This document shows positions 1,241 through 18,921 of a stretch of DNA of 64,000 nucleotides, in pieces. Both the position numbers and the translations under genes were made by a program. Each line of letters begins with the position of its first letter. Position 1 is the first letter of the stretch. This DNA comes from an uncultured Verrucomicrobiota bacterium (lineage in GTDB: Bacteria > Verrucomicrobiota > Verrucomicrobiia > Palsa-1439). The notes beneath the pieces are model-generated. The model saw nothing but the letters and a program-made list of their open reading frames with translations. It searched no databases and was not told the origin of the DNA. Location of the stretch: the NCBI GenBank assembly GCA_964541945.1, contig CAZISE010000020.1, positions 1,530 through 65,529 on the forward strand, read 5' to 3'.

Positions 1241-1492
1241 ACGCGCAACGATGTGCCTTTCATCCTGATGGCGTCAACGCAAATTTTGACAAGGTACGCA
1301 GGATTGCCCACCTCATCGTTGACATGATCTGGCAAAGTCCTGTCGTCTGCGCTCTGCGAAATCGGCAAAGCCGAATTCCCATTCGAAGGCTGTCAGGTCC
1401 AACTCCACAAACGATGATGAATCTCTACCCAGAACTTGTGTTCAACTCCCTGCCGGGGTAGTCTCCGTGCGAGGAAAGGACGAGGAAACCCC

Positions 1493-4400
1493 ATGAGGAT
1501 TGTTTGGAGCGGTCTACTACTGGCGATAGCCGGCATCGTCTCGGCGCAGGTGCCGCAGATGATCCACTACCAGGGGCGGGTCACCGTCGGTGGTACCAAC
1601 GTGACCGGCAACTACAACTTCCGTTTCGCTTTGGTGGACGGCACGGGTGCGACCACCTACTGGAGCAACGGCACCAGCGCCGTGTCGCTGTCAGTGAACA
1701 AAGGGCTGTACTCGGTGCTGCTCGGCGACACCAGCGTGCCGAACATGGCCTCGTTGCCAGCTAGCGTCTTCACCAACAGCGACGTGCGCCTGCGCGTTTG
1801 GTTTGACGGCGGCGGTGGCGAGCAACAACTCGCTCCCGACCAGCGCATCGCGGCTGTTGGCTATGCGCTGATGGCTGGCACGGTTACGGACGGCGCGATC
1901 ACAAGCAATAAACTCGCTTCTGGTGCCGTCGGCAGCGCGCAACTGGCATCGGGTCTGGCTAACGCCATCGTGCCGTGGCAGGTCAGCGGTTTGCAGACAC
2001 CGGTGGCGGTGGCGAACACCGGCTACATTCTCACCAATGCCGGTTTGACCGAATTGTTGCTGCCGTTTGCCGCCAACATCGGAGATGTGGTGCGCGTGTC
2101 GGGTGTCGGCACCGGGGGCTGGCAGATTGCCCCGAATATCGGACAGAGCATTGCCGGGTACTCGGCAGTCGTTACATTGGGAGGGACGTGGATGCCTTGT
2201 GCGACCAATTCCGAGGCGTGGTATGGATTGGCTGCCGATTATGACGGCAGTACGATTGTGGGAGTCAGTTCGTATGGCGGTCGCATTTGGGTTTCCCATG
2301 ACTCTGGAACGAACTGGATGGCGCGAGAAAATGTGGGGTATTGGACACAAGCGGCCTCCTCTGCCGACGGAACGAAGTTGGCAGTACTCGGTGGAACTGT
2401 TTATGCGACTCGGTCCATCTATACCTCGTCGGATGGTGGAACCAACTGGGTGGCGCGTGATAGCGCCCGCAACTGGAATGGAATCGCCTCCTCCGCCGAT
2501 GGTACCCGCCTTGCAGCGACAGTATCCGGCGGCCAGATTTACATCTCGACGAACTCAGGCGCCACGTGGACGGCGCGCGAACAGAATCGGAATTGGACTG
2601 GCATTTCATCTTCCGCGGACGGGATGAAACTGGTTGCGTCCGTTTACGGCGGCCTGATTTACACTTCGACGGATGGCGGCATCAATTGGACGCCGAGGGC
2701 TTTCACCAACAACTGGTCGCAGATTTCCTCCTCCACGGATGGCACCAAGCTCTTCGTCGGCACGAATCCCGGTTTCCTCTACACATCCAGTGACTCAGGC
2801 GAAACTTGGACACAGCGGGGCACCTCGAATTCATGGGTCTATGTTGCCTCCTCCGGTGATGGCAACCGTTTGATGGCAAACGCTCACGGGGAAAGCGGTC
2901 GCATCTACCTTTCCACCGACGGTGGGACAACATGGAACCAAGTCGAAAACGTCCGTTACTGGCGACAGGTTGCTGTCTCCGGCGACGGGAAGGTGCTCGC
3001 CGCCGTAGTGGACCGCGGATATATTTACGTGTCCCGTGCTGAGATGACAGGAACCACTGTCGCCGGTGCGCAAGGCACGACCGCCACGCTGCAATATCTC
3101 GGCAACGGCGTCTGGCAACCGCTCAATGAATCGTTGCTGGGCAACGGAGTTGTCGGTAGTTCACAACTGCGGGCGGGCGCGGTCGGTACTGCACAACTGG
3201 CCGCCAATGCTGTCCAAACCTCCAACATTGCCACCGGCGCCATCACCGGCGTCAACATCGCCAGCAACACCATCACCGCCGCGCAACTGGCCAAACCACC
3301 CCGCTCCGGCAGCATCGCCTCCGCGACCCTGAGTCTCGATTTCGATCAAGCCGATGGCACCGTCACGTTCGCGCCCCCCTTCAATGCCACGCCGAATGTC
3401 ACACTGAGTTTGGAAACGACCGACCTGACACTCCCCAGCACCAGCACGCTGTTCCTGAAAGGCAAAACAAGCACAAACTTCGCCTTTCACTGGTCGGCAC
3501 TGCCGGTGACAACGCCGGTGACCGTGGACGCGACTGGCAACGTCGGCAGCTTCACTTCGCTGGCGGTGGTCAACGGCACCCCGGCCATCAGTTATCGCGA
3601 CGAGGCCAACTACGACCTGAAATACGTGCGAGCTACCGATACCAACGGCACCGCTTGGGGCACGCCCGTCAGCGTGGACACCGCCGGCAACGTCGGTTAC
3701 TTTACCTCGCTGGCGGTGGTCAACGGCAACCCCGCCATCAGCTACTACGACAGCAGCAATGGTGACCTCAAATACGTGCGGGCCAACGATGCCGACGGCA
3801 CGAGTTGGGGCACGCCCGTCAGCGTGGACACCAACGGCGTCGTCGGCCAATACATTTCAATGGCGGTGGTCAACGGCAACCCGGCGATCAGCTACCACGA
3901 CGAGACAAACCACGACCTGAAATATGTCCGAGCCAACGATGCTAGTGGCACAACTTGGGGCACGCCCGTCAGCGTGGATACCGCCGGCAACGTCGGCAGA
4001 TGCACCTCGCTGGCGGTGGTCAACGGCAACCCCGCCATCAGTTACTACGACGACAGCAACCACGACCTGAAATACGTCCGAGCCAACGACACCAACGGCA
4101 CGACCTGGGCGACACCCCTCACACTGGATGCTACCGGCACCATTGGCTGGGACAACTCGCTGGAAGTGGTCAATGGCAACCCGGCCATCAGCTATCGCGA
4201 TGGCACCAACTACGACTTGAAATACATCCGGGCCACTGACGCCAACGGCACGACTTGGGGCACGCCCGTCCGTGTGGACACTAACGGCGCTGTCGGTATT
4301 TACACTTCGCTGGCGGTGGTCAATGGTCAGCCGGCCATCAGCTACTACGACGAGACAAATCAGGACCTGAAATACGTTCGGGCCAACGACGCCAACGGCG

Positions 4401-4588
4401 CGACCTGGGGCACGCCCGTCAGTTTGGATACCGCTGGCAACGTCGGCCAGTACACCTCGTTGGCGGTGGTCAACGGCCAGCCGGCCATCAGCTACTTCGA
4501 CGTCACCAATCTCGCCCTGAAATTTATTCGTCAGCGCGGCACCAACTATCCGCCTTTCACCGTCAACTGGATCGCCTTGGAACCGTAA
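1493..4588 (+). CDS. Large secreted multidomain protein (1031 aa). It has a signal peptide, an N-terminal 'tail-fibre-like' module (IHYQGRVTVGGTNVTG...FRFALVDG), a BNR/Asp-box-like beta-propeller (6-7 x S-x-D-G-G-T-N-W), an H-type-lectin-like segment and 7 x 50-aa C-terminal repeats that probably form a second 7-bladed propeller.
   Basis: ATG at 1493 preceded by gaggaaaggacgagga (SD-like). Signal peptide MRIVWSGLLLAIAGIVSAQV. Repeated SSDGGTNW / STDGGINW / SSDSGETW / STDGGTTW motifs. Seven tandem repeats of consensus VDTAGNVGQYTSLAVVNGNPAISYYDxxNxDLKYVRANDxNGTxWGTPVS. The ORF-track start at 1436 is probably upstream of the true start. Confidence 0.8.
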   Translation: MRIVWSGLLLAIAGIVSAQVPQMIHYQGRVTVGGTNVTGNYNFRFALVDGTGATTYWSNGTSAVSLSVNKGLYSVLLGDTSVPNMASLPASVFTNSDVRLRVWFDGGGGEQQLAPDQRIAAVGYALMAGTVTDGAITSNKLASGAVGSAQLASGLANAIVPWQVSGLQTPVAVANTGYILTNAGLTELLLPFAANIGDVVRVSGVGTGGWQIAPNIGQSIAGYSAVVTLGGTWMPCATNSEAWYGLAADYDGSTIVGVSSYGGRIWVSHDSGTNWMARENVGYWTQAASSADGTKLAVLGGTVYATRSIYTSSDGGTNWVARDSARNWNGIASSADGTRLAATVSGGQIYISTNSGATWTAREQNRNWTGISSSADGMKLVASVYGGLIYTSTDGGINWTPRAFTNNWSQISSSTDGTKLFVGTNPGFLYTSSDSGETWTQRGTSNSWVYVASSGDGNRLMANAHGESGRIYLSTDGGTTWNQVENVRYWRQVAVSGDGKVLAAVVDRGYIYVSRAEMTGTTVAGAQGTTATLQYLGNGVWQPLNESLLGNGVVGSSQLRAGAVGTAQLAANAVQTSNIATGAITGVNIASNTITAAQLAKPPRSGSIASATLSLDFDQADGTVTFAPPFNATPNVTLSLETTDLTLPSTSTLFLKGKTSTNFAFHWSALPVTTPVTVDATGNVGSFTSLAVVNGTPAISYRDEANYDLKYVRATDTNGTAWGTPVSVDTAGNVGYFTSLAVVNGNPAISYYDSSNGDLKYVRANDADGTSWGTPVSVDTNGVVGQYISMAVVNGNPAISYHDETNHDLKYVRANDASGTTWGTPVSVDTAGNVGRCTSLAVVNGNPAISYYDDSNHDLKYVRANDTNGTTWATPLTLDATGTIGWDNSLEVVNGNPAISYRDGTNYDLKYIRATDANGTTWGTPVRVDTNGAVGIYTSLAVVNGQPAISYYDETNQDLKYVRANDANGATWGTPVSLDTAGNVGQYTSLAVVNGQPAISYFDVTNLALKFIRQRGTNYPPFTVNWIALEP
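3524..4573 (+). repeat. Seven head-to-tail copies of an exactly 150-bp coding tandem repeat, with high DNA identity between copies.
   Basis: Copies start at 3524, 3674, 3824 and so on (gtggacaccgccggcaacgtcgg...ctggcggtggtcaacggcaacccggccatcagctactacgac). Long identical stretches are shared by copies. The antisense pseudo-ORFs 3161..3850 and 3857..4633 in the track are themselves repetitive for this reason. Confidence 0.85.
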
Positions 4589-4824
4589 CCGTTGCTGCCG
4601 CTCAACGCGATTCCCGACAACGGCACCGAACACGCTGTGATTGACACCAACGCGACCGACAACGTCCGTTTCTATCGCATCCTAATCACATATTCTTGGT
4701 CATCCAGCAAGCGGCATGTTCCGGCTTGTCGCCCTTGTGCTCGGCGTCCCGCTTCGCTTGGCTTGTTCCGGATTTCGTATCTTCTGCATCCCGTGGTAAA
4801 CACTTCCGCCTTTGTGGACTTGAT

Positions 4825-4855
4825 GCGCCGATATTCTATCATCGGCGCGTTTCTG
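4825..4855 (+). terminator. Candidate intrinsic terminator hairpin: 8-bp stem gcgccgat/atcggcgc, 8-nt loop, followed by gtttctg.
   Basis: Inverted repeat seen directly at 4825..4848 with a weak U-tract. It lies 240 bp downstream of the stop of the 1493..4588 gene in a 650-bp non-coding stretch. Confidence 0.3.
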
Positions 4856-5243
4856 CCGAATGCCAGACTGCGCGTGCTACCATGCGAGAAACTCGCCTGC
4901 CTGCGCCCCACCGAAATCAGCAAACCCGAGTTCACGTTGGAAGGGTGGCTGGAACGAATCAGCGACGATGATGACCACGCACAGGGCTTGCCTTCGACTC
5001 GCCGTCGGGGGGGATTCCTCACGCCAATGAACGCCCCCCTGCCATCCTGAGCGAAGCGGAAGCCGAGTTCGACGAGACGCAGGCCGCCGCAAATCTCTAT
5101 TGTGCCGCTTCTGGGACGACTCAAGAGAGGAAGCCAAAAACTCTTGTGAAGGTCAAAGTCCCCGGAAGAAATAGGAAAACTAAAACAATGCGGGGTGCCG
5201 CGGTTCGTGTCGTCTCCGCCACGGCAATGAAATCGGTCTGCGC

Positions 5244-6152
5244 TTAGTGCGGTCTGCCTCGTTGGACAAATTGCGAGGGCGAAAGTCCATACACTTTCTT
5301 GAAGGCCCGCGAAAAATGGTACGCATCCGCGAATCCCATTTCCTCCGCCACTTCCTTGACCAGGCGGTCGGAACCCAACAATCGGTCGGCGGCGTGGTTC
5401 ATCTTCAACCGCATCAGGTAATGGTACGGGCTGTTGTGCCCGAATCGGCGGAACAAGCGGCACAAATACGCCTGCTCCACATGACAGGCCGCCGCCACTT
5501 GTTCCACGGTTCGCAACTCACCGTAATGCTGCTCGATGTGTCGTCGGCAGCGTTCGTAGGTCGCAAACGCGCGCGTCGCTGCCGACCCGAACGGGATGGC
5601 GCTTTCCGCAATTTTCAATACCAGCAACTCGACCTGCAGCGCCAAAATCCGCGGGGTATATGGCGTGCGATGCAGCCCGTTGCGAATAAGGTCGTCGAAC
5701 AAGGCCAGCACTTCGCTTGGCGCGGAAGTTTGAATGATCGTGCCCGGTTTTGGCGCGTTACGTCGTAGCAGTGCCTCGGCGTTCTTCCCGGTAAAGTCCA
5801 CGAAATACTTCACCAATGTTTCCTTCGGATCCGAGACGATGTGTTGCGCCACTCCCGGCCCGTAGGAAAACAGCGTCCCCGGCGCCAGCTCCTGTTTGCG
5901 TCCGCCCAGGGTCAACTTCCCCTTTCCGCGCGCAACGAATTCGATGGACCAATATGGAAAACTTCGCCGACGAATCTCGTAATCGGGCGCGCAATGTTCG
6001 CAGCCACCGCAAACCACCGCCAGCGACACGGTCCGGGGCGGGTTCAGATCGAGGTAGAAACGCCGCCCCTCGGAGATTTGCATGGAGAAAAAATCCGGCT
6101 GTTGGCCCTCTTTCACAAGGAGCAGCTTCCACAAGCCTTCCGCCGAAGTCAA
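5244..6152 (-). CDS. AraC-family transcriptional regulator (N-terminal cupin/AraC-binding domain plus C-terminal double HTH).
   Basis: C-terminus EQVAAACHVEQAYLCRLFRRFGHNSPYHYLMRLKMNHAADRLL...VAEEMGFADAYHFSRAFKKVYGLSPSQF is a canonical AraC HTH_18 signature. It is divergently oriented to the epimerase operon. Confidence 0.9.
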   Translation of the reverse strand: MTSAEGLWKLLLVKEGQQPDFFSMQISEGRRFYLDLNPPRTVSLAVVCGGCEHCAPDYEIRRRSFPYWSIEFVARGKGKLTLGGRKQELAPGTLFSYGPGVAQHIVSDPKETLVKYFVDFTGKNAEALLRRNAPKPGTIIQTSAPSEVLALFDDLIRNGLHRTPYTPRILALQVELLVLKIAESAIPFGSAATRAFATYERCRRHIEQHYGELRTVEQVAAACHVEQAYLCRLFRRFGHNSPYHYLMRLKMNHAADRLLGSDRLVKEVAEEMGFADAYHFSRAFKKVYGLSPSQFVQRGRPH

Positions 6153-6242
6153 GAATGGACATCACAGAGTCAAGAACGGTCATTGTAACTTCCGGGGCAT
6201 CTTACTACAGTACGCGCGACATTGGACAGAAGGAGAACCGTC

Positions 6243-7286
6243 ATGAAAAAAGCCAAATACAGTTCGGACACACGGAAGGATGACCTGATTGTTGTCACCG
6301 GCGCCGGGGGATTTATCGGCGGCGCGCTGGTGCGTTATTTCAAGGACAAGGGATTCACCCGCCTCCGGGCGGTGGACAAGAAACCGTTGCCGCAATGGTA
6401 CCAGCGAATTGAGGGAGTCGAATCCCTGTGCCTGGACCTGACCAACGAAGAGTACTGTAAACGTGCCGTGGCCGGCGCCAGGGAAGTGTACAACCTCGCC
6501 GCTGACATGGGCGGGATGGGGTTTATCGAGCGGTTTCGCATCCAGTGCCTGCGCAGCATTCTCATCAACACCCATCTCATTGAGGCCGCCTACCATGCGG
6601 GAGTGGACCGTTATTTCTTCTCCTCCTCCGCCTGCGCCTACAACACCAAACTCCAGGAAGACCCGAATTGCCGCGCCCTGAAGGAATCGGATGCCTATCC
6701 CGCATTTGCCGAACGCGGTTACGGCTGGGAAAAATTGATGTCGGAAATGTTCTGTCAGGAATACTGGGCGGAACGAAAAATGAAGACCTTCATCGCCCGT
6801 TTCCACAACGTCTATGGCCCGTGGGGCACATGGGACGGCGGTCGCGAGAAGGCGCCAGCTGCGCTCTGCCGCAAGGTGATCGAGGCCAAATACGAGGGCG
6901 GCGGCACGCTCGAAATCTGGGGCGATGGCACGCAGACGCGCAGTTTCATGTATATTGATGACTGTGTGAAAGGCATTGATCTCATCATGCACTGCGACAA
7001 ACTCATCGCTACACCGGTCAACCTCGGCACCAGCGAGATGATTTCCATCAACGAACTGGCCAGCATCGCCGAGAAAATCGGTGGCATCCAACTCAAACGC
7101 GTGTATAAACTCGACGCGCCCAAGGGAGTGGCCGGCCGTAACAGCGACAATACGTTCATCAAGTCCGTGCTCGGTTGGGAACCGACAACGCCGATTCGCA
7201 AGGGCCTGGTGCCGACGTTCCGCTGGATCGAACAGCAGTACCTCGACCGCAAAGCCGGCAAAAAAACCGTCGAAGACCATCTCTAG
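6243..7286 (+). CDS. gme: GDP-mannose 3,5-epimerase homolog (GME-type NAD-dependent epimerase; GDP-D-mannose <-> GDP-L-galactose/GDP-L-gulose).
   Basis: Rossmann motif VTGAGGFIGG. Long GME-specific blocks YNLAADMGGMGFI, SSSACAYN, FHNVYGPWGTWDGGREKAPAALCRK, IWGDGTQTRSF and GRNSDNTFIKSVLGWEPT match plant and Methylacidiphilum GME nearly residue for residue. ATG at 6243 is preceded by aggagaa (SD) at the right spacing, so the track start at 6222 is probably 7 codons too long. Confidence 0.85.
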   Translation: MKKAKYSSDTRKDDLIVVTGAGGFIGGALVRYFKDKGFTRLRAVDKKPLPQWYQRIEGVESLCLDLTNEEYCKRAVAGAREVYNLAADMGGMGFIERFRIQCLRSILINTHLIEAAYHAGVDRYFFSSSACAYNTKLQEDPNCRALKESDAYPAFAERGYGWEKLMSEMFCQEYWAERKMKTFIARFHNVYGPWGTWDGGREKAPAALCRKVIEAKYEGGGTLEIWGDGTQTRSFMYIDDCVKGIDLIMHCDKLIATPVNLGTSEMISINELASIAEKIGGIQLKRVYKLDAPKGVAGRNSDNTFIKSVLGWEPTTPIRKGLVPTFRWIEQQYLDRKAGKKTVEDHL

Positions 7287-7292
7287 GACCGC

Positions 7293-8081
7293 ATGGCCGC
7301 CCGAAAGCTCACCGATATCATTGGCAACTTCCCGTACCGCATCGCGCTGGCCGGTGGTTGGATTGACCAGCCGTTTGTATCGGCGCACAATCCCGATCCG
7401 CCCGGCTCGATGGTGGTGATCAGCCTTGAACCGTTGTTCCCGTGGATGGACCGTTGCGGTATTGCCAGCAGCACCCGCCGCATCGCTCTCCAACGCTGGG
7501 GCCGTTTGCCGAAAGGCAACCCGCAGAAACGGGTGGAAGAATTGTACGAAGCCGAAAATCGTGGCAACCCAAATCCCTCCGGCTCGCAAGACATGATCGG
7601 TCTGCTCTACCCCGGCATCAGCCGCCTGGATTACGACATCCGTGTCAAAGGCGGATTTTTTCCCTGCCACATTGAGTCGTGCAACAATCCGAAAATCGCC
7701 CGCTGGCTGGAAACGGTCATCCGCGTGTTGCCTGTCGCGCCGCGTCCCGATGGCTACAGCCCGCTTGGCGTGAAAAATCTCGATCCGACCTGCATCGCCA
7801 GACTCGGACGGACCGGCAAGAACTGCTACGACGCCATTCTTGCCCGCGACGTGAAAAAACTCGGCCAATCCATGAACGACTGTATGGCTTGTTGGGAAAC
7901 CCTCATGCCCCATATCGTCCGCCATCCGACGATCAAGACCGATCTTGTCGCCCTTCTGAAGTATTACCAATCAAACTATCCCGGCGCCATGTACAGCGGT
8001 TGCGGTGGCGGCTATCTTTTCATTGCCTCCGAAGACCCTGTTCCCGGCACTTTCACCGTCAAAGTCCGCATCGCCCCATGA
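7293..8081 (+). CDS. Short (262 aa) GHMP-kinase-like protein (anomeric sugar kinase-like; resembles the N- and C-terminal motifs of fucokinase/heptose kinase).
   Basis: N-terminal YRIALAGGWIDQPF resembles the GHMP motif I of sugar-1-kinases (RISLAGGGTDLP). C-terminal SGCGGGYLFI resembles GHMP motif III (GAGGGGF). There is a weak glycine-rich middle motif PSGSQDMIGL. It is 7 bp downstream of gme. Confidence 0.45.
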   Translation: MAARKLTDIIGNFPYRIALAGGWIDQPFVSAHNPDPPGSMVVISLEPLFPWMDRCGIASSTRRIALQRWGRLPKGNPQKRVEELYEAENRGNPNPSGSQDMIGLLYPGISRLDYDIRVKGGFFPCHIESCNNPKIARWLETVIRVLPVAPRPDGYSPLGVKNLDPTCIARLGRTGKNCYDAILARDVKKLGQSMNDCMACWETLMPHIVRHPTIKTDLVALLKYYQSNYPGAMYSGCGGGYLFIASEDPVPGTFTVKVRIAP

Positions 8082-8800
8082 AACAGGTCATTGTCTCCGC
8101 CAGTTTCGACGACCTGCGGTCGCGTCACATCCGTCTCCTGGAAGAAGCCTCCAAACTCGGCCAGGTTCACGTCCTGCTCTGGTCCGACAAGCTGACCGGC
8201 AACCCGAAGTTTCCCGAAGCCGAACGGCTCTACCTGGTGCAGGCTGTTCGCTACGTCAGCAGTGTCCGTCTCGTGGACGATCCGCGTGACACCGGCCAAC
8301 TCAAACCCGACCTCTGGGTCAGCGAAACCGACCTGAAGCTCGACAGTGACGATTTCCCCGTTCCGCCGCCGATGCCGGGGCCGACGGGGCGCAAGAAGGT
8401 GGTCGTGACGGGATGTTACGACTGGTTTCACTCCGGACACGTTCGTTTTTTCGAGGAAGTCTCGCAGCTTGGCGACCTGTATGTCTGCATCGGTAACGAC
8501 GCCAATGTGCGCCTGCTGAAGGGCGAAGGGCATCCGCTTTTCCCGCAGGAAGAACGCCGTTACATGGTCGGTTCCATCCGCTATGTCAAACAATGCCTGA
8601 TCAATACTGGCACCGGCTGGATGGATGCCGCGCCGGAGATTGACCGCCTCAAACCCGACATCTACGCCGTGAACGAAGACGGCGATCGTCCCGAAAAACG
8701 CGAGTTCTGTGCGCAACACGGCCTTCAATATGTCGTGCTCAAGCGTACCCCCAAGGAAGGGCTGACAAAACGTTCGAGCACGGACTTACGTGGCTTCTGA
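8078..8800 (+). CDS. Tandem cytidylyltransferase-like (HxGH nucleotidyltransferase, RfaE-domain-II/TagD-like) protein. The N-terminal copy has a degenerate motif, the C-terminal copy is canonical.
   Basis: C-terminal domain TGCYDWFHSGHVRFF (G-x-F-D-x-x-H-x-G-H) plus IRYV...D downstream. N-terminal domain SASFDDLRSRHIRLL is a degenerate version. The ATG at 8078 overlaps the upstream stop (ATGA), giving translational coupling. The track ORF 7679..8800 has an implausible 133-aa leader. Confidence 0.6.
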   Translation: MKQVIVSASFDDLRSRHIRLLEEASKLGQVHVLLWSDKLTGNPKFPEAERLYLVQAVRYVSSVRLVDDPRDTGQLKPDLWVSETDLKLDSDDFPVPPPMPGPTGRKKVVVTGCYDWFHSGHVRFFEEVSQLGDLYVCIGNDANVRLLKGEGHPLFPQEERRYMVGSIRYVKQCLINTGTGWMDAAPEIDRLKPDIYAVNEDGDRPEKREFCAQHGLQYVVLKRTPKEGLTKRSSTDLRGF

Positions 8801-8833
8801 TTGTTTGGCCGTGGCGTCGGTATGCCAGCGGGA

Positions 8834-11224
8834 TTAGCGGGAAGCGGTCGCGGCGCGAACGAACTCATCCAGGCTGATCAATGACGTTGGTTTCTGATTC
8901 GCCTCGATTTTGGCAATGGTTTTTTCGATGGCAACGGCCAGTTCGTTTTGATCCTTGTTTTTTCGGTCTTTCTTGATAATCGCCTCGCGCATCTGACGCA
9001 GTTGCGGGAGCCACGGCGCGGCATGGCTGCCATACCGGGCGAGGTACTCCAGGTATTTCGGAATCCGATGGTTCTGTCCCCACCGCTCCGGCTCCATCAA
9101 TTCCACGCACATCGCCATGGCCTCACGAATCCGCAACCGCGACAACAGGTCCACTCCCGCCAGACGGATACCGTCGGCAAACATCTCGCCGCTGGGCGCG
9201 GGTTCTTTCACCGCTTTCACGATGAACGGCAGCAACGCGGCAATATCGCGCTCATCCAGATGCGGATAAATCCGCTGAAGCGAGCTGCGCGTGGTGCCGT
9301 CCTGGTTTTCGAGCACCGCTTTGATGGCCGGGTACAACAGCTCACGGTTCACGCCATCGAGCGACTCGGCCAGGATACTCTTCGGTTCGTGTTTTCCGGG
9401 ACGCGGTGAAAAGAGCGCGCTACAGGCGTACCGTTGTACCATGGCGCGGGGATCGGCGGGGTTGCGGCGAACGGTCAGCCGCAACAACTCCGGCACGGCC
9501 GCTTTTCGGGTGGCCGGCCCCATCTGGGGCAGTGCCTCGGCGGCGAGACATTGTAACCACGGATCGGGGTCCTGGAGCAACGCCAGCAGGCGAGGAGCCG
9601 CCGCCTCGGCCTTCGGGCCGAGCAATCCCAGCGCCTCGCAGGCGCCGTAGCGGGCATTCGGATTGGGACTGGCAAGCAGCGAAAGCAGGCGCGGCACAAA
9701 GTCGCCATCCCGACGACTCAACGCCTGTGCCGAACGTTTTCGCACGGCCGGCGACCAGCTCGACAAACCGGCCAGCAATGTCTCGGTATCGCGGTGGTCG
9801 TAACAGTTCTTTTCGGTCCAAAAACTGAAATCGCGTCCTGCCGCTATGACCTCGGCGGTTTCTTCGCGCGACAGAGGGGTGGCGGCGCCCGGTTTGCGTC
9901 CGGTCAGGTAGAGGCTTTTCAGCGGCAACGCATAGGTGAGCAGATAGGCTCCGGTGCAGTCCCAGTTGTTGTAACGGTGGCCGCCCCAATTGGCGGGCGT
10001 GCCCTGGTAGAGGAAGGTGCCGTCCCAGCCGCGGGCGAGGTCGTAGTACCAGGCGGTTTCCTTGAAGTACGCACTGGTGGCGAGCGGTCCGCAGCGGGAG
10101 ACGCCGGGTATGGCCCAGAGGATGTTAAAGAAGTTGCCGGTGTGGCCACTTTCGCGTTCGGCATAGGCGGCGGTGGCCATTTTGGCGAAGAAATTGGCCG
10201 CCTCGCGGTCGCCCAACAAGTCGTAAAGCACGGCGGCGCTGGAGCATTTGCCATTGTCCTCGTGCCACGGCCACGGGTCATGGTCGCCATACGGGATGGA
10301 GCCTTTTCCGACGTACCAGCGAAGGAACTGGGCCGATTTCAGGATGGCCCGGTCGAGCGCGGGATCATTCACTCCGGCCTCGCGCGCCAGTAACATGGCC
10401 AGCGTCAGGACGATGCCGGGCTGGTTCATGGCGCCGTAACCGTTGAGAATGCCGTCCGCGCGGGCAAAACCATGCCCCCACGTGCCGACACCGCTCTGGC
10501 CGCGGGCAATGTCGAGCGCGAGCCGTCGCAATCCATCAGCGACCGCCGCGTCGCGCGTGGCCAGCGCGTATTCGGCAAGAAACAGCGTCGCATAAGCATA
10601 CCCCCAGGTGACGTATCCGCCCGGCTGATGCGCGGCGACTTTGCGAGCATAGGCGGCAACCAGCGGCTGGTACTCGCTGCGTCCCGAAGCGAGCAACGCC
10701 AGCGCATTGAGGTCGTTGGGGATCGAGACATCTGCCAGCGGTTTTTTTGCGATGGCCCGGCAGCCCAGCTCAAAAATCCGTTGCGACTTCGCGCAGCCGT
10801 ATGGCGCGGTGTCGCTGTAGGCGCCCATCACGGGCAGTTTGAGTTCGATATTTTCCGTGTGGCCGCCGCGCCAGCGCAACAGGCGGAGAAGGCCGTGATG
10901 CGGTTCTTTCTCGGCTTCCGTGATGGCGTTGGCCAACTGAATCCGGGCATCGCCGTCAAATGGCTTGCCGTCAACTCCGAGGATCACATCGCCCCTGGTC
11001 AGCGCACCATCAGCAGGGGAACCTTTTGCCACGGCGGTCACCAGAATCTGACGGGCATCGGTGGTTTGTCCCTGGCGTCCGCTGATCCAGCCACGCGCAC
11101 CGGTCGGGCCGAGTGTCCAGTCGTGAGTGTCATCGGGTTTGTCGCCACGCGTGAAATCGGGCGCGGCCACAACGTGGAGCCCGAGCAGCCACAGCAAGGC
11201 GACGGCGAGAAGTGTTCTGCTCAT
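8834..11224 (-). CDS. Secreted PDZ-domain protein with a central alpha/alpha-toroid-like domain and C-terminal HEAT/PBS-lyase-type repeats (796 aa).
   Basis: Signal peptide MSRTLLAVALLWLLGLHVVAA. PDZ-like KGSPADGALTRGDVILGVDGKPF. Repeats ...NARYGACEALGLLGPKAEAAAPRLLALLQDPDPWLQCLAAEALPQMG typical of HEAT/PBS lyase. Confidence 0.65.
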   Translation of the reverse strand: MSRTLLAVALLWLLGLHVVAAPDFTRGDKPDDTHDWTLGPTGARGWISGRQGQTTDARQILVTAVAKGSPADGALTRGDVILGVDGKPFDGDARIQLANAITEAEKEPHHGLLRLLRWRGGHTENIELKLPVMGAYSDTAPYGCAKSQRIFELGCRAIAKKPLADVSIPNDLNALALLASGRSEYQPLVAAYARKVAAHQPGGYVTWGYAYATLFLAEYALATRDAAVADGLRRLALDIARGQSGVGTWGHGFARADGILNGYGAMNQPGIVLTLAMLLAREAGVNDPALDRAILKSAQFLRWYVGKGSIPYGDHDPWPWHEDNGKCSSAAVLYDLLGDREAANFFAKMATAAYAERESGHTGNFFNILWAIPGVSRCGPLATSAYFKETAWYYDLARGWDGTFLYQGTPANWGGHRYNNWDCTGAYLLTYALPLKSLYLTGRKPGAATPLSREETAEVIAAGRDFSFWTEKNCYDHRDTETLLAGLSSWSPAVRKRSAQALSRRDGDFVPRLLSLLASPNPNARYGACEALGLLGPKAEAAAPRLLALLQDPDPWLQCLAAEALPQMGPATRKAAVPELLRLTVRRNPADPRAMVQRYACSALFSPRPGKHEPKSILAESLDGVNRELLYPAIKAVLENQDGTTRSSLQRIYPHLDERDIAALLPFIVKAVKEPAPSGEMFADGIRLAGVDLLSRLRIREAMAMCVELMEPERWGQNHRIPKYLEYLARYGSHAAPWLPQLRQMREAIIKKDRKNKDQNELAVAIEKTIAKIEANQKPTSLISLDEFVRAATASR

Positions 11225-11236
11225 TGGTGATTCCGC

Positions 11237-12235
11237 TCAGCCCATCCATGGGCGCGAACGGTGACCGCCGGCTACGGCTTTGAGGGCCTGGTCGGCAATG
11301 GCGGTGTTTTCGACGACCTGGAAATCGAACATGCCGACGCAGAGGAAGTCGGCGCCGTTCTCGAAACACCATTGGAAGGCTTGTCGGGGATGAATCGCTC
11401 CGGCGGCTAGTGTTTTGAAGGCAATCCACGGTTTCTTCAAGGTCGCCATGTAATCAATGGTCTCCTTGGCGTCAATGCACCACATGTTGTCGTGATGCAG
11501 CCCGTGCTCGCGTTTGTTGCCGTTGACCTCGTCGAAGATGCGACGATTTTCCACCGGCGTGGCCGACCAGTAGTCGTCACGGTGAAGGGTTTTGACCCAG
11601 AAATCCACTTCGAATCCGGCTAGGACACACTCGCGGATCGTTTCCAGACAATGGGCGCCGATACCGTAGGGAACCTTCTGGGTTTGCATGAACTTCAGCG
11701 CCGACTCGATTTCGCCAAGCTGGCCGTCCTTGACCAGTTTGTCGCAGTAGCCGCCCTGCAGATAGATGGCGTGGGCGCCGTTGTCCACGGAACGTTTGAT
11801 GCCGTCCTTGAGGTTGCTCGTGGCGCAATCGGAGATCCACTGGATTTTACCACCCTGTTTCCAATACGCATTGATCACACGGTCGGAGACGGGGTTGGTC
11901 AACACCGTATTGATGCCGCGCCGCTCGGCCAGGCGGAAGGTTTCAAAAATTTTCTCATCCGTGTGGTACGCCTTGACCAACGGCGACACGTAGATGAGGT
12001 CGCGGCTGTGCGCCCAGCCGCCGATGAGATTGCCGCCGCAAATAATGCGGCTAACCTCCAGGTTCTTGATTTTTCCCTTCGGAAGCTCCAACGGATCTGG
12101 CATCGCAACCGCGGGCGTTCCCGCCTTGATCTCCGCGCTCAGTACCTGCTCCTCAAAACTGTGCCCCACCAACGCCGTGCTGCCGACCGCCAGCGAAGTC
12201 TTCAGAAAACCACGACGACCAATCTTCTTTGACAT
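11237..12235 (-). CDS. Tat-exported hypothetical protein (332 aa; function unknown).
   Basis: Twin-arginine signal MSKKIGRRGFLKTSLAVGSTAL. There is an uninterrupted ORF with good coding periodicity, but no confident family match. Confidence 0.55.
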   Translation of the reverse strand: MSKKIGRRGFLKTSLAVGSTALVGHSFEEQVLSAEIKAGTPAVAMPDPLELPKGKIKNLEVSRIICGGNLIGGWAHSRDLIYVSPLVKAYHTDEKIFETFRLAERRGINTVLTNPVSDRVINAYWKQGGKIQWISDCATSNLKDGIKRSVDNGAHAIYLQGGYCDKLVKDGQLGEIESALKFMQTQKVPYGIGAHCLETIRECVLAGFEVDFWVKTLHRDDYWSATPVENRRIFDEVNGNKREHGLHHDNMWCIDAKETIDYMATLKKPWIAFKTLAAGAIHPRQAFQWCFENGADFLCVGMFDFQVVENTAIADQALKAVAGGHRSRPWMG

Positions 12236-12341
12236 GGCACTCTCTCCGTTTGCGCCGAATCTACGCGGCCCGACGGCAGAGTCAAGAACAGATACCGCAG
12301 TATTGCCAACAACGGGCGGAGTCGGCTACAAAAGAGTTCCT

Positions 12342-13420: not shown

Positions 13421-14023
13421 ATGCAACCTTGGAAAACCATCTCCCGCCAGGTCGTTCGTGAGTTCGGCAAGTTTCTCACGGTGGAAGTGCATCAGATCGA
13501 GTTACCCGACGGGCGTCGGCTCGACAACTGGCCCTGGCTGGTCTCGCCGCATTTTGTGCTGGTCCTGCTGCGGACGGTTGACGGCCGATTTGTGATTTTC
13601 CGCCAGACCAAATACGCCGTCAAAGGTACCTCGCTGGCACCGGTGGGCGGTCACATCGAGGAGGGTGAGCGTCCGCTGGCCGCTGCCCGACGCGAAGCTC
13701 TGGAAGAGACCGGCTACGTGGCCGCTCGTTGGGTGTCGCTGGGCCGATTCGTCGTCAACGGCAATCACGGCAACGGCGGCGCGCATCTTTATCTGGGGCT
13801 GGACGCCCGTCGCACGACCGCGCCCAGCGGCGGTGATCTGGAGGAACAAAAGTTGTTGTTGTTAACCCGCCGCCAACTGGAAACGGCTCTCGACCGTCAT
13901 CAGTTCAAGGTCCTTGCCTGGTGCGCCCTGATTTTACAGGCGCTGCGTTACCTCGACCAAAAGGAGAAATCATCGCCATGCTCAAAACCGGCATCCTCAA
14001 CCCGCACATCAACTCGTTACTGA
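13421..14023 (+). CDS. NUDIX hydrolase (nucleoside-diphosphate-sugar pyrophosphatase type; candidate GDP-sugar hydrolase).
   Basis: Nudix box GGHIEEGERPLAAARREALEETG. The ATG at 13421 has aaggaa 8 nt upstream. The gene lies 2 bp after the manC stop. Confidence 0.75.
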   Translation: MQPWKTISRQVVREFGKFLTVEVHQIELPDGRRLDNWPWLVSPHFVLVLLRTVDGRFVIFRQTKYAVKGTSLAPVGGHIEEGERPLAAARREALEETGYVAARWVSLGRFVVNGNHGNGGAHLYLGLDARRTTAPSGGDLEEQKLLLLTRRQLETALDRHQFKVLAWCALILQALRYLDQKEKSSPCSKPASSTRTSTRY

Positions 14024-14367
14024 GCCGCATTCGTCACACCAACACGCTGGTCATTGCCGACCGCGGATTCCCCTTCTGGCCGATGATCGAGACGGTGGAC
14101 ATCTCGCTGGTGGACGATGTTCCGACCGTGCTCGACGTGCTCAACGCCATCCGCCCGAACTTTGTGATCGGCAAGGCATGGATGGCGCAAGAGTTCCTCG
14201 CCCACAACCGCGCCCCAACCCGCGCGGCGTTTGCCAGGGCCCTGGCCGGCATCCCGCTCGTCTATGAACCGCACATCGAGTTCAAGAAACGAATCCCGCA
14301 CGCCATCGGCCTCATCCGCACGGGCGACACCGTCCAGTACGCCAATCTCCTCCTGGAATCGGCCTAG
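13978..14367 (+). CDS. fucU: RbsD/FucU-family sugar mutarotase (L-fucose mutarotase / D-ribose pyranase).
   Basis: MLKTGILNPHINSLLSRIRHTNTLVIADRGFPF matches the RbsD/FucU N-terminal signature (H..D.G.P). There is a perfect SD aaggagaaat 8 nt upstream of the ATG at 13978. Confidence 0.8.
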   Translation: MLKTGILNPHINSLLSRIRHTNTLVIADRGFPFWPMIETVDISLVDDVPTVLDVLNAIRPNFVIGKAWMAQEFLAHNRAPTRAAFARALAGIPLVYEPHIEFKKRIPHAIGLIRTGDTVQYANLLLESA

Positions 14368-14463: not shown

Positions 14464-16347
14464 ATGACGAGATTCGGACTGACCCGGTGGATGGTTTTGT
14501 GGTTTCTGGCGGTTGCAATCGGCGCGGAGGCAGGGACGGATACGGACTACTATCGGATCCGCGGCGGCATTCCCAATAGCCAGTATTTTTTCCAAAACGA
14601 CAAGGTCGGCAATCAATACCTGTTTTTCATTGGCAACACCGTGCTGGCCGGAAAGGGATTGAAGGACCAGAGCCTGCGGTACTCCGCGCAAATGGTAAAA
14701 GGGTTCAAGAAACATTTTCCACAAGCGGGGATCATTGAGACGCGGCACATGCAGCCGGGCGGAAGCTGGTTGGGATTGTATCGGTGCAGTCGGGGGCAAG
14801 CGGTGTTTGGGGAGGTGATCTGCAGCGGACATCTGGCCATTCTCGACTTTGCTGCCGATGACCGGAACATGGATATGGAGACGGTCAAGACCTCTCTGGA
14901 AGGGCTGGTTCGCCAGATCACGCTGTATCGGGCCACTCACAGCCGAATTCTCGTTTACACGCTAACCCCGGAGATGCTGGCGGCGTACAAAGACGGTCGG
15001 ACACCCGAATACATCAAGGTCTGCGAACAAATCGCGGATCATTACGGAATTCCCAGCCTGAACCTGGCCCGGTATGCGGCAGACAAGATTCTCTCCGGCG
15101 CGATTTCCTTCGCGGATTTTTCCGCCGACGGGATTCATCCGACCGATGCGGGAGCGAAGATTTACAACGAGGCCGTGGAAAAGTTCGTGGAGGCACTGAT
15201 GACGGCGTTTCCCGTTCCCGACAAACCCACCGCCTACAAGCTGCCGCCCGCCCTCTTTGCAGAAACCAACGACAATGGGCGCATCATCGCGTATGAGGAC
15301 CCGGTGGTGAAACGGTCCGGCTCCTGGGAACCAGGCCAGGCCAGTCCCATCGGCCCATTCCGCCACATCCTCGTTTCCAGCAAGGTCGGCGACACTTTGT
15401 CACTGAAGTTCAAAGGTTCGGAAATCGGGATCATGGATGTCGTGGATAAGGACAGCGCCGACCTCGAGTATGCGGTGGATGGCAGCGCGTTTCAAAAGCT
15501 CGCCGCACCCAAAGACACGGCAGCCCCGACAATGCGCGCCGTCGCGCTGGTCAAAGGATTGAACCGCGACGCCGATCATGAAATCGTCCTGAGAATCGCT
15601 TCCGACGGAACAACGCGCATGGGCGGGTTTCTGCTCAACGGCACCGTCGCGGACGCCTTTGCGGGGATGAGCACTCTGGAGAAGATTGACGCCATCTATG
15701 CCGCAATGGACCCAATCCGTTATACGCCGCCGACGGGACGGTTTGCGAACATTCCCCGAACAATGGACAAGCTCCACAACGGCGGTGAACTGCGGATGGT
15801 GCTGCTGGGCGACAGCATCATGGGCAACACCTCCGCCTCGTCGTTCGAGCTGTTGCTGATGAGGCACTACCCAAAATGTAAAATCATCAAGATCCCGTCC
15901 CTGCGCAGTTCCACCGGTTGCAAGTACTACCAGCAGGAAAACCGGGTCCAAGACTACGTCCTGAAACATCACCCGGACCTGCTGGTCATCGGCGGCATTT
16001 CCAACGGAGGCGACGCCGAGGCCGTCCGTTCCGTGATCCGACAGGTCCGCGCCCAAAAACCGGACACGGAAGTGTTATTGTTGACACCCGTGTTCGGCTC
16101 CGTCCGCGACGAACATATCCGGACCTGGACACGCGAGATTGACACCACCCGGAGCAATTTCCGCTGGAACCTGCAGAAGGTCGCCACCGAGGAGAAATGC
16201 GCCTTTTTCGACATGACCGGCCCGTGGTGGGAATACATCCAGAACAGCGGCAAAACCTACGGCTGGTTTATGGGCGACGCCGTTCACGCCAACGCGCGCG
16301 GCTGCCAGATCATCGCCCGCCTCCTGGAAATCTGGTTCAAGGAATAA
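14464..16347 (+). CDS. Secreted tandem SGNH/GDSL-hydrolase-fold protein (two SGNH domains; the first lacks the nucleophile Ser).
   Basis: Signal peptide MTRFGLTRWMVLWFLAVAIGAEAG. Domain 1 has FFIGNTVLAG (GDS->GNT) but retains DGIHPTDAG (DxxH block V). Domain 2 has MVLLGDSIMGN and GDAVHANARG. Confidence 0.75.
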   Translation: MTRFGLTRWMVLWFLAVAIGAEAGTDTDYYRIRGGIPNSQYFFQNDKVGNQYLFFIGNTVLAGKGLKDQSLRYSAQMVKGFKKHFPQAGIIETRHMQPGGSWLGLYRCSRGQAVFGEVICSGHLAILDFAADDRNMDMETVKTSLEGLVRQITLYRATHSRILVYTLTPEMLAAYKDGRTPEYIKVCEQIADHYGIPSLNLARYAADKILSGAISFADFSADGIHPTDAGAKIYNEAVEKFVEALMTAFPVPDKPTAYKLPPALFAETNDNGRIIAYEDPVVKRSGSWEPGQASPIGPFRHILVSSKVGDTLSLKFKGSEIGIMDVVDKDSADLEYAVDGSAFQKLAAPKDTAAPTMRAVALVKGLNRDADHEIVLRIASDGTTRMGGFLLNGTVADAFAGMSTLEKIDAIYAAMDPIRYTPPTGRFANIPRTMDKLHNGGELRMVLLGDSIMGNTSASSFELLLMRHYPKCKIIKIPSLRSSTGCKYYQQENRVQDYVLKHHPDLLVIGGISNGGDAEAVRSVIRQVRAQKPDTEVLLLTPVFGSVRDEHIRTWTREIDTTRSNFRWNLQKVATEEKCAFFDMTGPWWEYIQNSGKTYGWFMGDAVHANARGCQIIARLLEIWFKE

Positions 16348-16377
16348 CGCTCTTCATCGTCCAAGCAACCGGCCATT

Positions 16378-17379
16378 ATGAAGCTGTTTTTTGCTCTTCT
16401 GGCAGTCAGCGCCAACTTGTTTGCCGCCGAATTGGTGGACTACGGGCCGCTGGCGTTTCAGCCGGACACCTGGGCTGAGAAAAAACAGGACACCAGAATG
16501 CTGGCCTGGGAAGGCCGTGAGATTGTTTTTCTCACTCTGCCCGGCAACTACGATGCCCGTCTGATGGAACATTGGGTCCGGCGGCTCGACGAAGGTTGGG
16601 CGCTCTACGCCGACCTCACCGGGGCGCGGCCACGTCCCCTCAAACAACTGCACGGCAAAGCCACCATCGCCGCCGTGCCCGACGGGTTTACCTGCGGGGC
16701 CGGTTGCGGGTACATCGGCGCCACCGGCATTGAGCTTTCGATGTTCTACCACTCCAACTATCCGGCATTGAAAAAGAATCCCGACGCCATTCCGCACTAT
16801 GTTTTCTATGAGATGGGCCGCAATTTCTATACCTTTGGCGACCGCCATTCCTGTTTCATCACCGGGTTTGCCGTCTTCATGCGGTACGTTTGCATGGACA
16901 ACCTCCGATGCGCCGACAACGATCTGAAAACCCGCCAGACCATCGAAAAAGCCGAGTCGCTCATCGTCCGCGAGAACATGCCCTTTCTGAAAGCGTTTAC
17001 CAACGCCGGCGGCCTCACCGAAAAACAAGCCCGCCTCAAAATCCATCCCAGCGATCAACCCGTCATCTACGCCTCCGCCATGATGCGCCTCTACCGCGAG
17101 AACGGCGGCAACGACTGGCTTCGCCGCTTCTTCCGCGGCCTCGCCCAATCTCCCACTTCCAGACCCGACACCCGCGAGGGCGCCCTCCAGCAAAGTTGGT
17201 ACTGGTATCTTTGCGCCAGCCTTGCCGCCGGAAAAGATTTGTCCTCGGTGTTTGCAGACCGGTGGCGACTGCCACTGGCCACGACAACACGCCGCCAACT
17301 GGCCTCACTCGACTGGAAACAACCGGGGTTGTCGCCTGCCACCATTTCTGAACAAATCAAACCAGAATGGCTTCCATAA
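16378..17379 (+). CDS. Secreted hypothetical protein (333 aa).
   Basis: Signal peptide MKLFFALLAVSANLFAAE and an uninterrupted ORF. The antisense ORF 16354..17298 is GC-frame noise. Confidence 0.55.
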   Translation: MKLFFALLAVSANLFAAELVDYGPLAFQPDTWAEKKQDTRMLAWEGREIVFLTLPGNYDARLMEHWVRRLDEGWALYADLTGARPRPLKQLHGKATIAAVPDGFTCGAGCGYIGATGIELSMFYHSNYPALKKNPDAIPHYVFYEMGRNFYTFGDRHSCFITGFAVFMRYVCMDNLRCADNDLKTRQTIEKAESLIVRENMPFLKAFTNAGGLTEKQARLKIHPSDQPVIYASAMMRLYRENGGNDWLRRFFRGLAQSPTSRPDTREGALQQSWYWYLCASLAAGKDLSSVFADRWRLPLATTTRRQLASLDWKQPGLSPATISEQIKPEWLP

Positions 17380-18914: not shown

Positions 18915-18921
18915 GTTTGTT

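Follow-up and report, generated by a model that had tools for sequence, protein, structure and literature searches.

The 64,000-nucleotide window analysed here comes from an uncultured Verrucomicrobiota bacterium (lineage Palsa-1439; contig CAZISE010000020.1 of assembly GCA_964541945.1, positions 1,530 to 65,529) and carries, on its forward strand, a cassette of three tightly linked genes whose order is kept across at least seven phyla. The first (gene 1, 6243-7286, 347 aa) encodes an orthologue of GDP-mannose 3,5-epimerase (GME, also called GM35E), the second (gene 2, 7293-8081, 262 aa) a predicted anomeric sugar kinase from a reduced GHMP-fold family that lacks annotation, and the third (gene 3, 8078-8800, 240 aa) a protein with a tandem cytidylyltransferase fold. 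The reading to which we give slightly more credence than doubt is that the cassette is a sugar-inducible, Leloir-like catabolic route that takes free L-galactose to central metabolism via GDP-sugars; for this, we infer the enzymatic activities, the sugar, the use of GTP by gene 3, the direction of the flux and the inducer. An earlier note on this DNA had described the same three genes and the ATGA overlap that joins genes 2 and 3, and both stand, while the gap that it gave as 7 bp between GME and gene 2 is of 6 nt (TAG GACCGC ATG). Its interpretation as a nucleotide-sugar pathway, either catabolic or synthetic, is supported, and the catabolic branch is favoured by the fusions, the transporters and the GH29 clade described below.

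Gene 1 was identified from its open reading frame translation and from sequence searches. Its best solved relatives are plant GMEs (8sg0, 3e-76; 2c59, 2e-74), with GMEs ranging down to 1e-73, versus 9e-24 for GDP-fucose synthase, the next family, and 1e-18 for GalE-type enzymes. The heptose epimerase model TIGR02197 was matched at only 7e-15. The hallmarks of GM35E enzymes are a Ser/Tyr/Lys triad, a Cys acid and a Lys base, which is not His as in GMER (PMC8787198), together with an Arg, instead of a Lys, that acidifies the Cys, a diphosphate-binding Arg and a conserved Asn (PMC8787198). Gene 1 and Arabidopsis GME share 44% identity, and none of the eight signature residues (S143, C145, Y174, K178, N203, K217, R243 and R306 in Arabidopsis numbering) is altered. 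The numbering of the Arabidopsis sequence used for this alignment agreed with the published signature residues. The signature was also found complete in the orthologues of loci L085-L090, which belong to Verrucomicrobiota and Bacteroidales. By every available sequence test, gene 1 is a GDP-mannose 3,5-epimerase, of the plant type that the earlier note had recognised, and its predicted activity is the interconversion of GDP-D-mannose with GDP-L-galactose or GDP-L-gulose. The latter is a product that GME is known to make as well (PMC6678494).

Sequence searches with gene 2 gave nothing significant. There were zero matches in Pfam and NCBIfam, hence none to GHMP_kinases_N or GHMP_kinases_C above threshold, and against the PDB the E-values were 0.07-0.3 with phmmer and 0.3 with a profile of 35 homologues. 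Weak, non-significant matches to FKP (E 0.09-0.3) spanned GHMP motifs I and III only, and distant fusion homologues touched GHMP_kinases_C (P0348 at 1.3e-6, P0312 and P0313 at about 1e-2). It was structure prediction alone that placed gene 2. The AlphaFold2 model, built from 35 homologues (pLDDT 88, pTM 0.88), shows the two-domain GHMP fold, and the top Foldseek ranks were heptokinase WcbL, galactokinase and FKP. The model is unambiguously of the GHMP fold and nearest to anomeric sugar kinases, meaning that the GHMP-like kinase proposed in the earlier note is borne out in its fold by the predicted structure, though without a Pfam or NCBIfam match.

Canonical GHMP kinases have a motif I (R..L.GG..D), a motif II phosphate loop (P-x-G-S-G-L-G-S-S-A), a catalytic Asp in G-x-Q-D and a motif III (G-x-G-G-G). 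In 28 diverse members of the gene 2 family, down to 29% identity, R16, G21, W23, D25, G38, R62, N89, G97, Q99, D100, Y114, P124 and P206 are invariant, and G56, S60, S98 and G236-G240 near-invariant. When assigned from sequence patterns and a secondary-structure prediction, without superposition of coordinates, these residues appear to fall at the expected motif I, a divergent motif II, the G-x-Q-D Asp and motif III. The homologues of gene 2 number more than 7,700, every one of them unnamed. We propose that the protein, a predicted anomeric sugar kinase, is an L-galactose 1-kinase.

Gene 3 matched Pfam CTP_transf_like (PF01467) at 4.5e-16, with 59.7 bits against a gathering threshold of 21, and the best stretch was residues 110-210. 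A complete HxGH nucleotidyltransferase domain, with the motifs H118-S-G-H121, RYVK and RTPKEGLxxRSST, makes up its C-terminal half (about 8390-8797). The N-terminal half (about 8078-8380) is degenerate: the fold is present, FDDLRSRH stands in place of HxGH and some 30 residues have been lost in this lineage. The tandem HxGH protein described earlier is thus a tandem cytidylyltransferase fold with HxGH in its C-terminal half only. The AlphaFold2 model of gene 3 (pLDDT 91) matched human ethanolamine-phosphate cytidylyltransferase (ECT; 4xsv, TMq 0.74) and, with single domains, HldC (5xf2) and TagD (1coz) in Foldseek, and on this predicted structure gene 3 is a nucleotidyltransferase of the TagD/ECT/HldC type with a tandem fold like that of human ECT. 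We propose that its C-terminal domain transfers a nucleotidyl, perhaps guanylyl, group to L-galactose-1-phosphate. The adjoining short-chain dehydrogenase/reductase (SDR), which is gene 1, bears the GM35E signature, and this sets gene 3 outside the heptose (RfaE) and FAD pathways, which the earlier note had named as placements that would refute its proposal. The RfaE/ADP-heptose pathway was rejected for the cassette as a whole, the SDR having the GM35E signature and the kinase not being PfkB.

To look at the conservation of the cassette, one genome per GTDB species was scanned, which gave 576 gene 2 relatives. The neighbourhoods of the best 80 were scored with tblastn of labelled reference proteins and with Pfam-labelled contigs. 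In these best 80 of 576 loci, gene 2 has 62-84% identity, and the genomes belong to seven phyla (Verrucomicrobiota, Planctomycetota, Chloroflexota, Latescibacterota, Acidobacteriota, Spirochaetota and Armatimonadota). In this split family, GME lies directly upstream of gene 2 in 66 of the 77 evaluable loci and gene 3 directly downstream in 59 of 74, so that the neighbourhood is conserved and the order GME-gene 2-gene 3 is kept across at least seven phyla. Chance adjacency was ruled out by this cross-phylum conservation together with the fusions. Over at least seven phyla, GME and gene 2 keep an identity of 62-84%, far above what vertical descent would lead one to expect, and this suggests a lateral spread of the whole cassette. 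Contiguity is not obligatory, since in some genomes no gene 3, or no GME, stands next to gene 2, as seen in L084 (Anaerobaca lacustris), L088, L014, L041 and L073. In Anaerobaca lacustris (GCA_030012215) the arrangement is AraC-GME-gene 2.

Sugar-related genes accompany the cassette in some relatives. Locus L085 has GH29, GH3, an SSF symporter, RbsD/FucU and AraC on one side and GME, gene 2, gene 3 and NUDIX on the other. L087 has GH39, GH29, a CUT2-type ABC transporter, RbsD/FucU and AraC on one side, and GME, gene 2, gene 3, ManC and NUDIX on the other. An SSF symporter was present in 4 of the 80 split-family loci. L086, whose gene 2 is 81% identical, presents another arrangement (6205-9997), which lacks an AraC gene; the genes just before GME, in the same orientation, encode a HAD hydrolase, a 322-aa protein and a PfkB kinase.

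By exhaustive HMMER search, we located proteins in which a gene 2 domain (29-48% identical) is fused to other domains. Cytidylyltransferase-gene 2 fusions of about 378-385 aa are represented by P0249, P0257 and P0402. P0264 has two cytidylyltransferase domains before the gene 2 domain, P0312 a RhaM mutarotase and a cytidylyltransferase, P0348 a PNP_UDP_1 domain and a cytidylyltransferase, and P0313 a GT2 domain alone; the fusions with PNP_UDP_1 and with GT2 hint that the gene 2 module may have further substrates or roles. The 378-aa family has more than 5,000 members, of which those named by NCBI are mostly from Bacteroidales. Its halves are 49-51% identical to the gene 3 C-terminal domain and 44-47% to gene 2, and the neighbouring SDR has 58% identity with the GME of the window and all eight signature residues. 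When 80 metagenome loci of this fusion family were examined, GME was directly upstream in 54 of 58 evaluable loci, GH29 was present in 43 of 80 and directly downstream in 25 of 54, LacI-family regulators recurred and a ManC-type gene was found in one sub-lineage. NCBI names the fusions P0397 and P0402 (loci L089 and L090) "FAD synthase". This label looks like a misannotation, since the partner domain is GHMP and the neighbours are GME, GH29 and LacI. A function as FAD synthase was rejected, as nothing in the context concerns flavins and the transferase is fused to a GHMP domain that resembles sugar kinases.

Three genes further downstream on the forward strand could complete the route. The first encodes a ManC-type mannose-1-phosphate guanylyltransferase without a phosphomannose isomerase domain (start at 12342, MRYAVIMAGGSGT, or at 12360, end at 13418), which matched Pfam NTP_transferase and ManC_GMP_beta-helix as well as TIGR01479 (8e-73) and whose best solved relative is the mannose-1-phosphate guanylyltransferase 2x5s (4e-48). 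The second (13421-14023, 200 aa) encodes a NUDIX protein resembling NDP-sugar pyrophosphatases, identified through Pfam NUDIX, with NudF protein 5c7q (2e-11) and ADP-ribose pyrophosphatases as best solved relatives. The third (13978-14367, 129 aa) overlaps the NUDIX gene by 46 nt and encodes a sugar mutarotase or pyranase of the RbsD/FucU family (Pfam RbsD_FucU, 9e-25; D-ribose pyranase 3p12, 1e-16; FucU homologue 2wcu, 6e-3). The earlier note had placed these genes within 6 kb of the cassette, and all lie at most 5.6 kb downstream; its FucU label was imprecise, the protein being closer to RbsD among solved structures.

This ManC-NUDIX-RbsD unit is cut off from gene 3 by two minus-strand genes (8834-12235), one for a DUF6288/HEAT/PDZ protein assigned by Pfam (8834-11224, 796 aa) and one for a 332-aa protein with no Pfam match (11237-12235). 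Both look like an insertion that split the unit from gene 3, because relatives with ManC directly after gene 3 (L007, L049, L051, L059 and L063) lack the two genes at that place. ManC is downstream of gene 3 in 15 of 64 evaluable loci, and also occurs among fusion-family loci, while ManC or NUDIX is found there in 20 of 64. NUDIX follows gene 3 or ManC in L004, L026, L036, L046, L049, L061, L085 and L087. This varied presence of either or both genes after gene 3 fits with ManC and NUDIX being alternative exit enzymes. The RbsD-like gene is present in 10 of 80 loci and stands beside AraC and a transporter in L085 and L087.

Upstream of the cassette and divergent from it, on the minus strand, lies the gene of an AraC-family regulator (5244-6116 from a GTG start, 290 aa; a TTG start at 6152 is also open), which agrees with what the earlier note had reported. 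Pfam detected HTH_18 (9e-21), HTH_AraC and a cupin-type AraC_binding domain (2.4e-10). The 290-aa gene call was taken from the near-identical contig L081 (JGI Ga0272448_1000088), whose gene 2 is 100% identical to that of the window. Of 69 evaluable loci, 26 have an AraC orthologue (48-79% identity) in this upstream, divergent position. The 126 bp between AraC and GME contain a direct repeat, AGTCAAGAAnGGnCAT, with copies AGTCAAGAAtGGaCAT at 6147-6162 and AGTCAAGAAcGGtCAT at 6168-6183 on the forward strand and a period of 21 bp. These two are the only perfect matches to AGTCAAGAANGGNCAT in the 64 kb, where 0.17 would be expected with up to 2 mismatches. The layout of two half-sites (RGTCAAKAA..G.CAT and a related half-site 21 bp on) was found in 12 Verrucomicrobiota and Planctomycetota loci, with a TATAAT-like box 3' of the half-sites in most of those from Planctomycetota. 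Helix-turn-helix and cupin-type sensor domains in the protein, together with direct-repeat half-sites spaced by about 21 bp beside the target promoter, are what characterises AraC/XylS systems, and the AraC protein probably binds the repeat at 6147-6183, a putative operator. The operator core, AGTCAAGAA, has three exact matches in the 64 kb (6147, 6168 and 12280) against 0.21 expected. Since the third copy (12280-12288, forward strand) recurs just upstream of ManC, 54-72 nt before its possible starts, the sequence suggests that the displaced ManC-NUDIX-RbsD unit is in the same AraC regulon, with the control either kept or gained.

We then considered which sugar the cassette may handle. Seven operon-linked GH29s were sampled, four from Verrucomicrobiota and Planctomycetota, two from Bacteroidales and one from an unassigned metagenome contig (L146), and because their pairwise identity is 39-79% they are grouped here, by sequence, as one clade. 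Among solved structures, the top match of the GH29s of L087 and L089 was BpGH29 (1e-87 and 3e-97), an exo-alpha-L-galactosidase from the porphyran locus of Bacteroides plebeius, the best other solved GH29 being at 1e-55 and 1e-60. L-galactose is a constituent of red-algal porphyran. GME links GDP-L-galactose with GDP-D-mannose, and 3,5-epimerisation of the 6-deoxy analogue, starting from L-fucose, leads to GDP-D-rhamnose. The chemistry thereby favours L-galactose as well, as the sugar from which a 3,5-epimerase can arrive directly at a usable central metabolite, mannose.

We consider it very unlikely that the substrate is instead L-fucose, with GDP-D-rhamnose formed from GDP-L-fucose and either catabolised or built into D-rhamnose glycans, or some different L-sugar, for example L-gulose. 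It is true that GH29 is mainly a fucosidase family, that the fucokinase FKP is among the best fold matches of gene 2, that rhamnose genes and RhaM domains are found nearby and that GME also yields GDP-L-gulose (PMC6678494). However, judging from the chemistry, GDP-D-rhamnose has no known entry into central metabolism, the E-values of the GH29 clade favour the alpha-L-galactosidase BpGH29 over the other solved GH29s by about 30-40 orders of magnitude and the epimerase retains every GM35E residue. L-fucose catabolism via the cassette was rejected on the same chemical reasoning, its GDP-D-rhamnose product having no evident catabolic use. Altogether, the GH29 clade, the transporters and the fusions favour a catabolic shunt, and L-galactose over L-fucose.

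In the pathway that we propose, a co-travelling GH29 similar to exo-alpha-L-galactosidase would free L-galactose outside the cell or in the periplasm, an SSF or CUT2-ABC transporter would import it, and a mutarotase, of the RbsD/FucU type or, in a few fusion-family loci, of the RhaM type, would provide the right anomer. Gene 2 would phosphorylate C1 to give beta-L-galactose-1-phosphate, from which the C-terminal domain of gene 3 would make GDP-beta-L-galactose and pyrophosphate (PPi) with a nucleoside triphosphate (NTP), presumably GTP, and GME, working in reverse of the plant direction, would form GDP-alpha-D-mannose. Mannose-1-phosphate would be obtained either by ManC pyrophosphorolysis, with GTP regenerated, or by NUDIX hydrolysis, to GMP, and housekeeping enzymes would carry it to fructose-6-phosphate. 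AraC, acting on the 6147-6183 repeat and probably also upstream of ManC, would turn the genes on with the sugar present. That such a "GDP-Leloir" catabolism of L-galactose operates, with its genes either split or fused, in hundreds of species of at least eight phyla is put forward tentatively, with doubt slightly outweighing belief. What would be new under it, namely a minimal GHMP kinase family, a GTP-using HxGH transferase and a physiological reverse GME, we regard as possible to a similar degree, a little short of an even chance.

Several observations weigh against the L-galactose pathway. The main weak point is the hand-over from gene 3 to GME, since GME needs a GDP-sugar and, to our knowledge, characterised HxGH transferases of this type (TagD, ECT/CCT and HldC) use CTP or ATP, not GTP. 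In length, gene 2 falls about 70-90 residues short of known sugar kinases, and the position of its motif II is occupied by a divergent loop (G56, S60, R62) of the pattern R-x-G-[IM]-[AC]-[TS]-[SG]-T-R. The mutarotase is RbsD-like rather than FucU-like among solved structures. The GH29 link, strong in the fusion family, was found within 6 kb in only 7 of the 80 split-family loci, neither a GH29 nor a transporter is present in the 64-kb window, and likeness to BpGH29 does not fix the specificity of these enzymes. Moreover, unrelated housekeeping genes flank many loci, and a group of ManC, GME and NUDIX is also reminiscent of biosynthetic GDP-sugar clusters.

The CTP or ATP use of the nearest solved gene 3 relatives and the atypical motif II of gene 2 also speak for another explanation. 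Genes 2 and 3 could make a CDP- or ADP-activated compound that does not pass through GME, for instance heptose-like or a polyol phosphate, with GME and ManC forming a second, GDP-linked block for the same product, or gene 2 could be a GHMP protein that is not a kinase. The PfkB and HAD genes directly upstream in L086 recall the ADP-heptose route, and the name "FAD synthase" given by NCBI to the fusion points the same way. Against this, the SDR is a GME and not of the HldD type, PfkB and HAD occur together in one lineage only, the mutarotase fusions and the linkage to an exo-glycosidase and a monosaccharide transporter indicate a free hexose, and there is no riboflavin context, save an incidental ribD in L146. 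We therefore hold this explanation to be improbable in a high degree.

The resemblance to biosynthetic clusters bears on a salvage or anabolic role, in which scavenged L-galactose and/or L-fucose would be activated as by FKP, ManC and GME would form a de novo branch, the product, GDP-L-galactose or GDP-L-fucose, would serve glycosyltransferases with genes elsewhere in decorating the cell surface and NUDIX would trim the pool, like Gmm in colanic-acid clusters. The triad of kinase, transferase and mutarotase with fucokinase-like fold matches is in accordance with such a role, ManC-GME is also the forward biosynthetic order, and SDR, NUDIX and ManC resemble GDP-fucose clusters such as the colanic-acid cluster of E. 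coli. The GT2-gene 2 fusion P0313 may be counted here too, as may a GT4 about 6 kb away in L086, which was the sole glycosyltransferase in six Pfam-annotated loci. On the other hand, no glycosyltransferase or export gene recurs beside the cassette in the labelled loci, AraC/LacI sugar regulators, importers and an exo-glycosidase are the usual catabolic layout, and salvage alone needs no GME, yet GME is the most constant partner in both families. Because of this constancy of GME, the lack of a recurrent glycosyltransferase and the inducible sugar-utilisation context, salvage is rated below catabolism, and we consider it unlikely.

The remainder of the window was also inspected. It contains three sulfatases in total, so that the sulfatase-rich context described earlier is confirmed. 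After the RbsD-like gene (14464-20802), we found genes for a 627-aa GDSL-like esterase and a 333-aa protein without Pfam match, followed by two adjacent sulfatases, in an order that also exists in L081 and L082; the third sulfatase is at 43717-45615. Upstream of AraC, L081 (5251-7609) carries a DDE transposase, GH28 and MgtE, where the window (1436-5243) has a 1050-aa BNR/Sortilin-Vps10/DUF4959 protein instead, and this difference beside the regulator is a strain-level rearrangement. A domain of the HZS_alpha type (hydrazine synthase alpha middle) was seen, with DUF7402, in a 914-aa protein of the window (26289-29033, minus strand), and a large HZS_alpha-domain protein also adjoins the cassette in L086 (12308-15013).

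Our literature search turned up no L-galactose kinase, no GDP-L-galactose pyrophosphorylase from bacteria, no phosphorylative route for L-galactose and no account of the cassette, and nothing relevant on GME in fucoidan or porphyran regulons. The earlier note had been aware of no characterised operon of this kind, and no paper on such a cassette came up in this search either. Besides porphyran, L-galactose occurs in agarans, pectin rhamnogalacturonan II, some xyloglucans and cereal xylans. If the L-galactose pathway is correct, a phosphorylative nucleotide-sugar route would be a new entry in carbohydrate metabolism, the published routes that we found being oxidative. More than 7,700 "hypothetical" proteins, and more than 5,000 fusions labelled "cytidyltransferase-like" or "FAD synthase", would acquire a function. 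The pathway would also give bacterial GME, so far guessed to serve lipopolysaccharide (LPS) synthesis, a physiological role, and would explain why a GME of the plant type, 72-84% identical between phyla, is so widespread among bacteria that degrade glycans. The production of GDP-L-galactose and L-sugars, an industrial bottleneck according to GME reviews, would profit from an L-galactose 1-kinase and a GDP-L-galactose pyrophosphorylase, and the AraC/operator pair is a candidate L-galactose-responsive switch.

Finally, we compared the cassette with known systems. It is alike the Leloir/Isselbacher routes for D-galactose in the proposed succession of mutarotase, GHMP anomeric kinase, NDP-sugar, SDR epimerase and hexose-1-phosphate, and, as in the Isselbacher route, NTP and PPi would be cycled between two pyrophosphorylases, which in the scheme are gene 3 and ManC. 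It differs from the Leloir pathway, with its activities read from sequence and predicted structure, in a GDP- instead of a UDP-sugar, a 3,5- instead of a 4-epimerase, an L-sugar and the lack of a GalT-type (HIT) transferase; the kinase is from a reduced, unannotated GHMP family and the first transferase has the HxGH (TagD/ECT) fold. With FKP of Bacteroides it shares an anomeric GHMP-fold kinase coupled, and in the cassette sometimes fused, to a nucleotidyltransferase for an L-galactose-configured sugar. The transferase domain of FKP is of the ManC-like sugar-nucleotidyltransferase type, not HxGH, whereas the partner domain of the cassette is PF01467, not NTP_transferase; the FKP kinase is 12-14% identical to gene 2, and FKP, without a GME link, serves glycan synthesis and not catabolism. 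The ADP-heptose pathway (HldE, GmhB, HldD) likewise combines a kinase, an HxGH sugar-1-phosphate nucleotidyltransferase, for which HldC/HldE domain II gave a fold match, and an SDR epimerase acting on an NDP-sugar. The HldE kinase is PfkB-type, not GHMP. In contrast to that pathway, the epimerase of the cassette is GME-type, its kinase has the GHMP fold and its core is without sedoheptulose isomerase or phosphatase.

Gene 1 shares its family and signature residues with the GME of the plant Smirnoff-Wheeler route and with MfGM35E of Methylacidiphilum fumariolicum, and the plant route likewise opens with ManC and then GME. Unlike that route, the cassette has no recurrent HIT-family GDP-L-galactose phosphorylase, phosphatase or L-galactose dehydrogenase, and the proposed direction is reversed. 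Plant-like ascorbate/L-galactose biosynthesis was rejected for lack of these three enzymes as recurrent partners. The Methylacidiphilum enzyme is the sole characterised bacterial GME that we found in the literature, and its presumed LPS context is different (PMC6678494). Oxidation of L-galactose in Phocaeicola vulgatus, and by the lgu genes in Luteolibacter sp. LG18, yields L-galactonate and proceeds through D-tagaturonate and 2-keto-3-deoxygluconate (KDG) (PMC12632266). These oxidative routes have the same presumed substrate and purpose as the cassette, and one of the examples is from Verrucomicrobiota (PMC12632266), but they have no enzyme in common with it. Altogether, the logic of the cassette is a variant of the Leloir/Isselbacher and FKP-type schemes, with at least one unannotated enzyme family.

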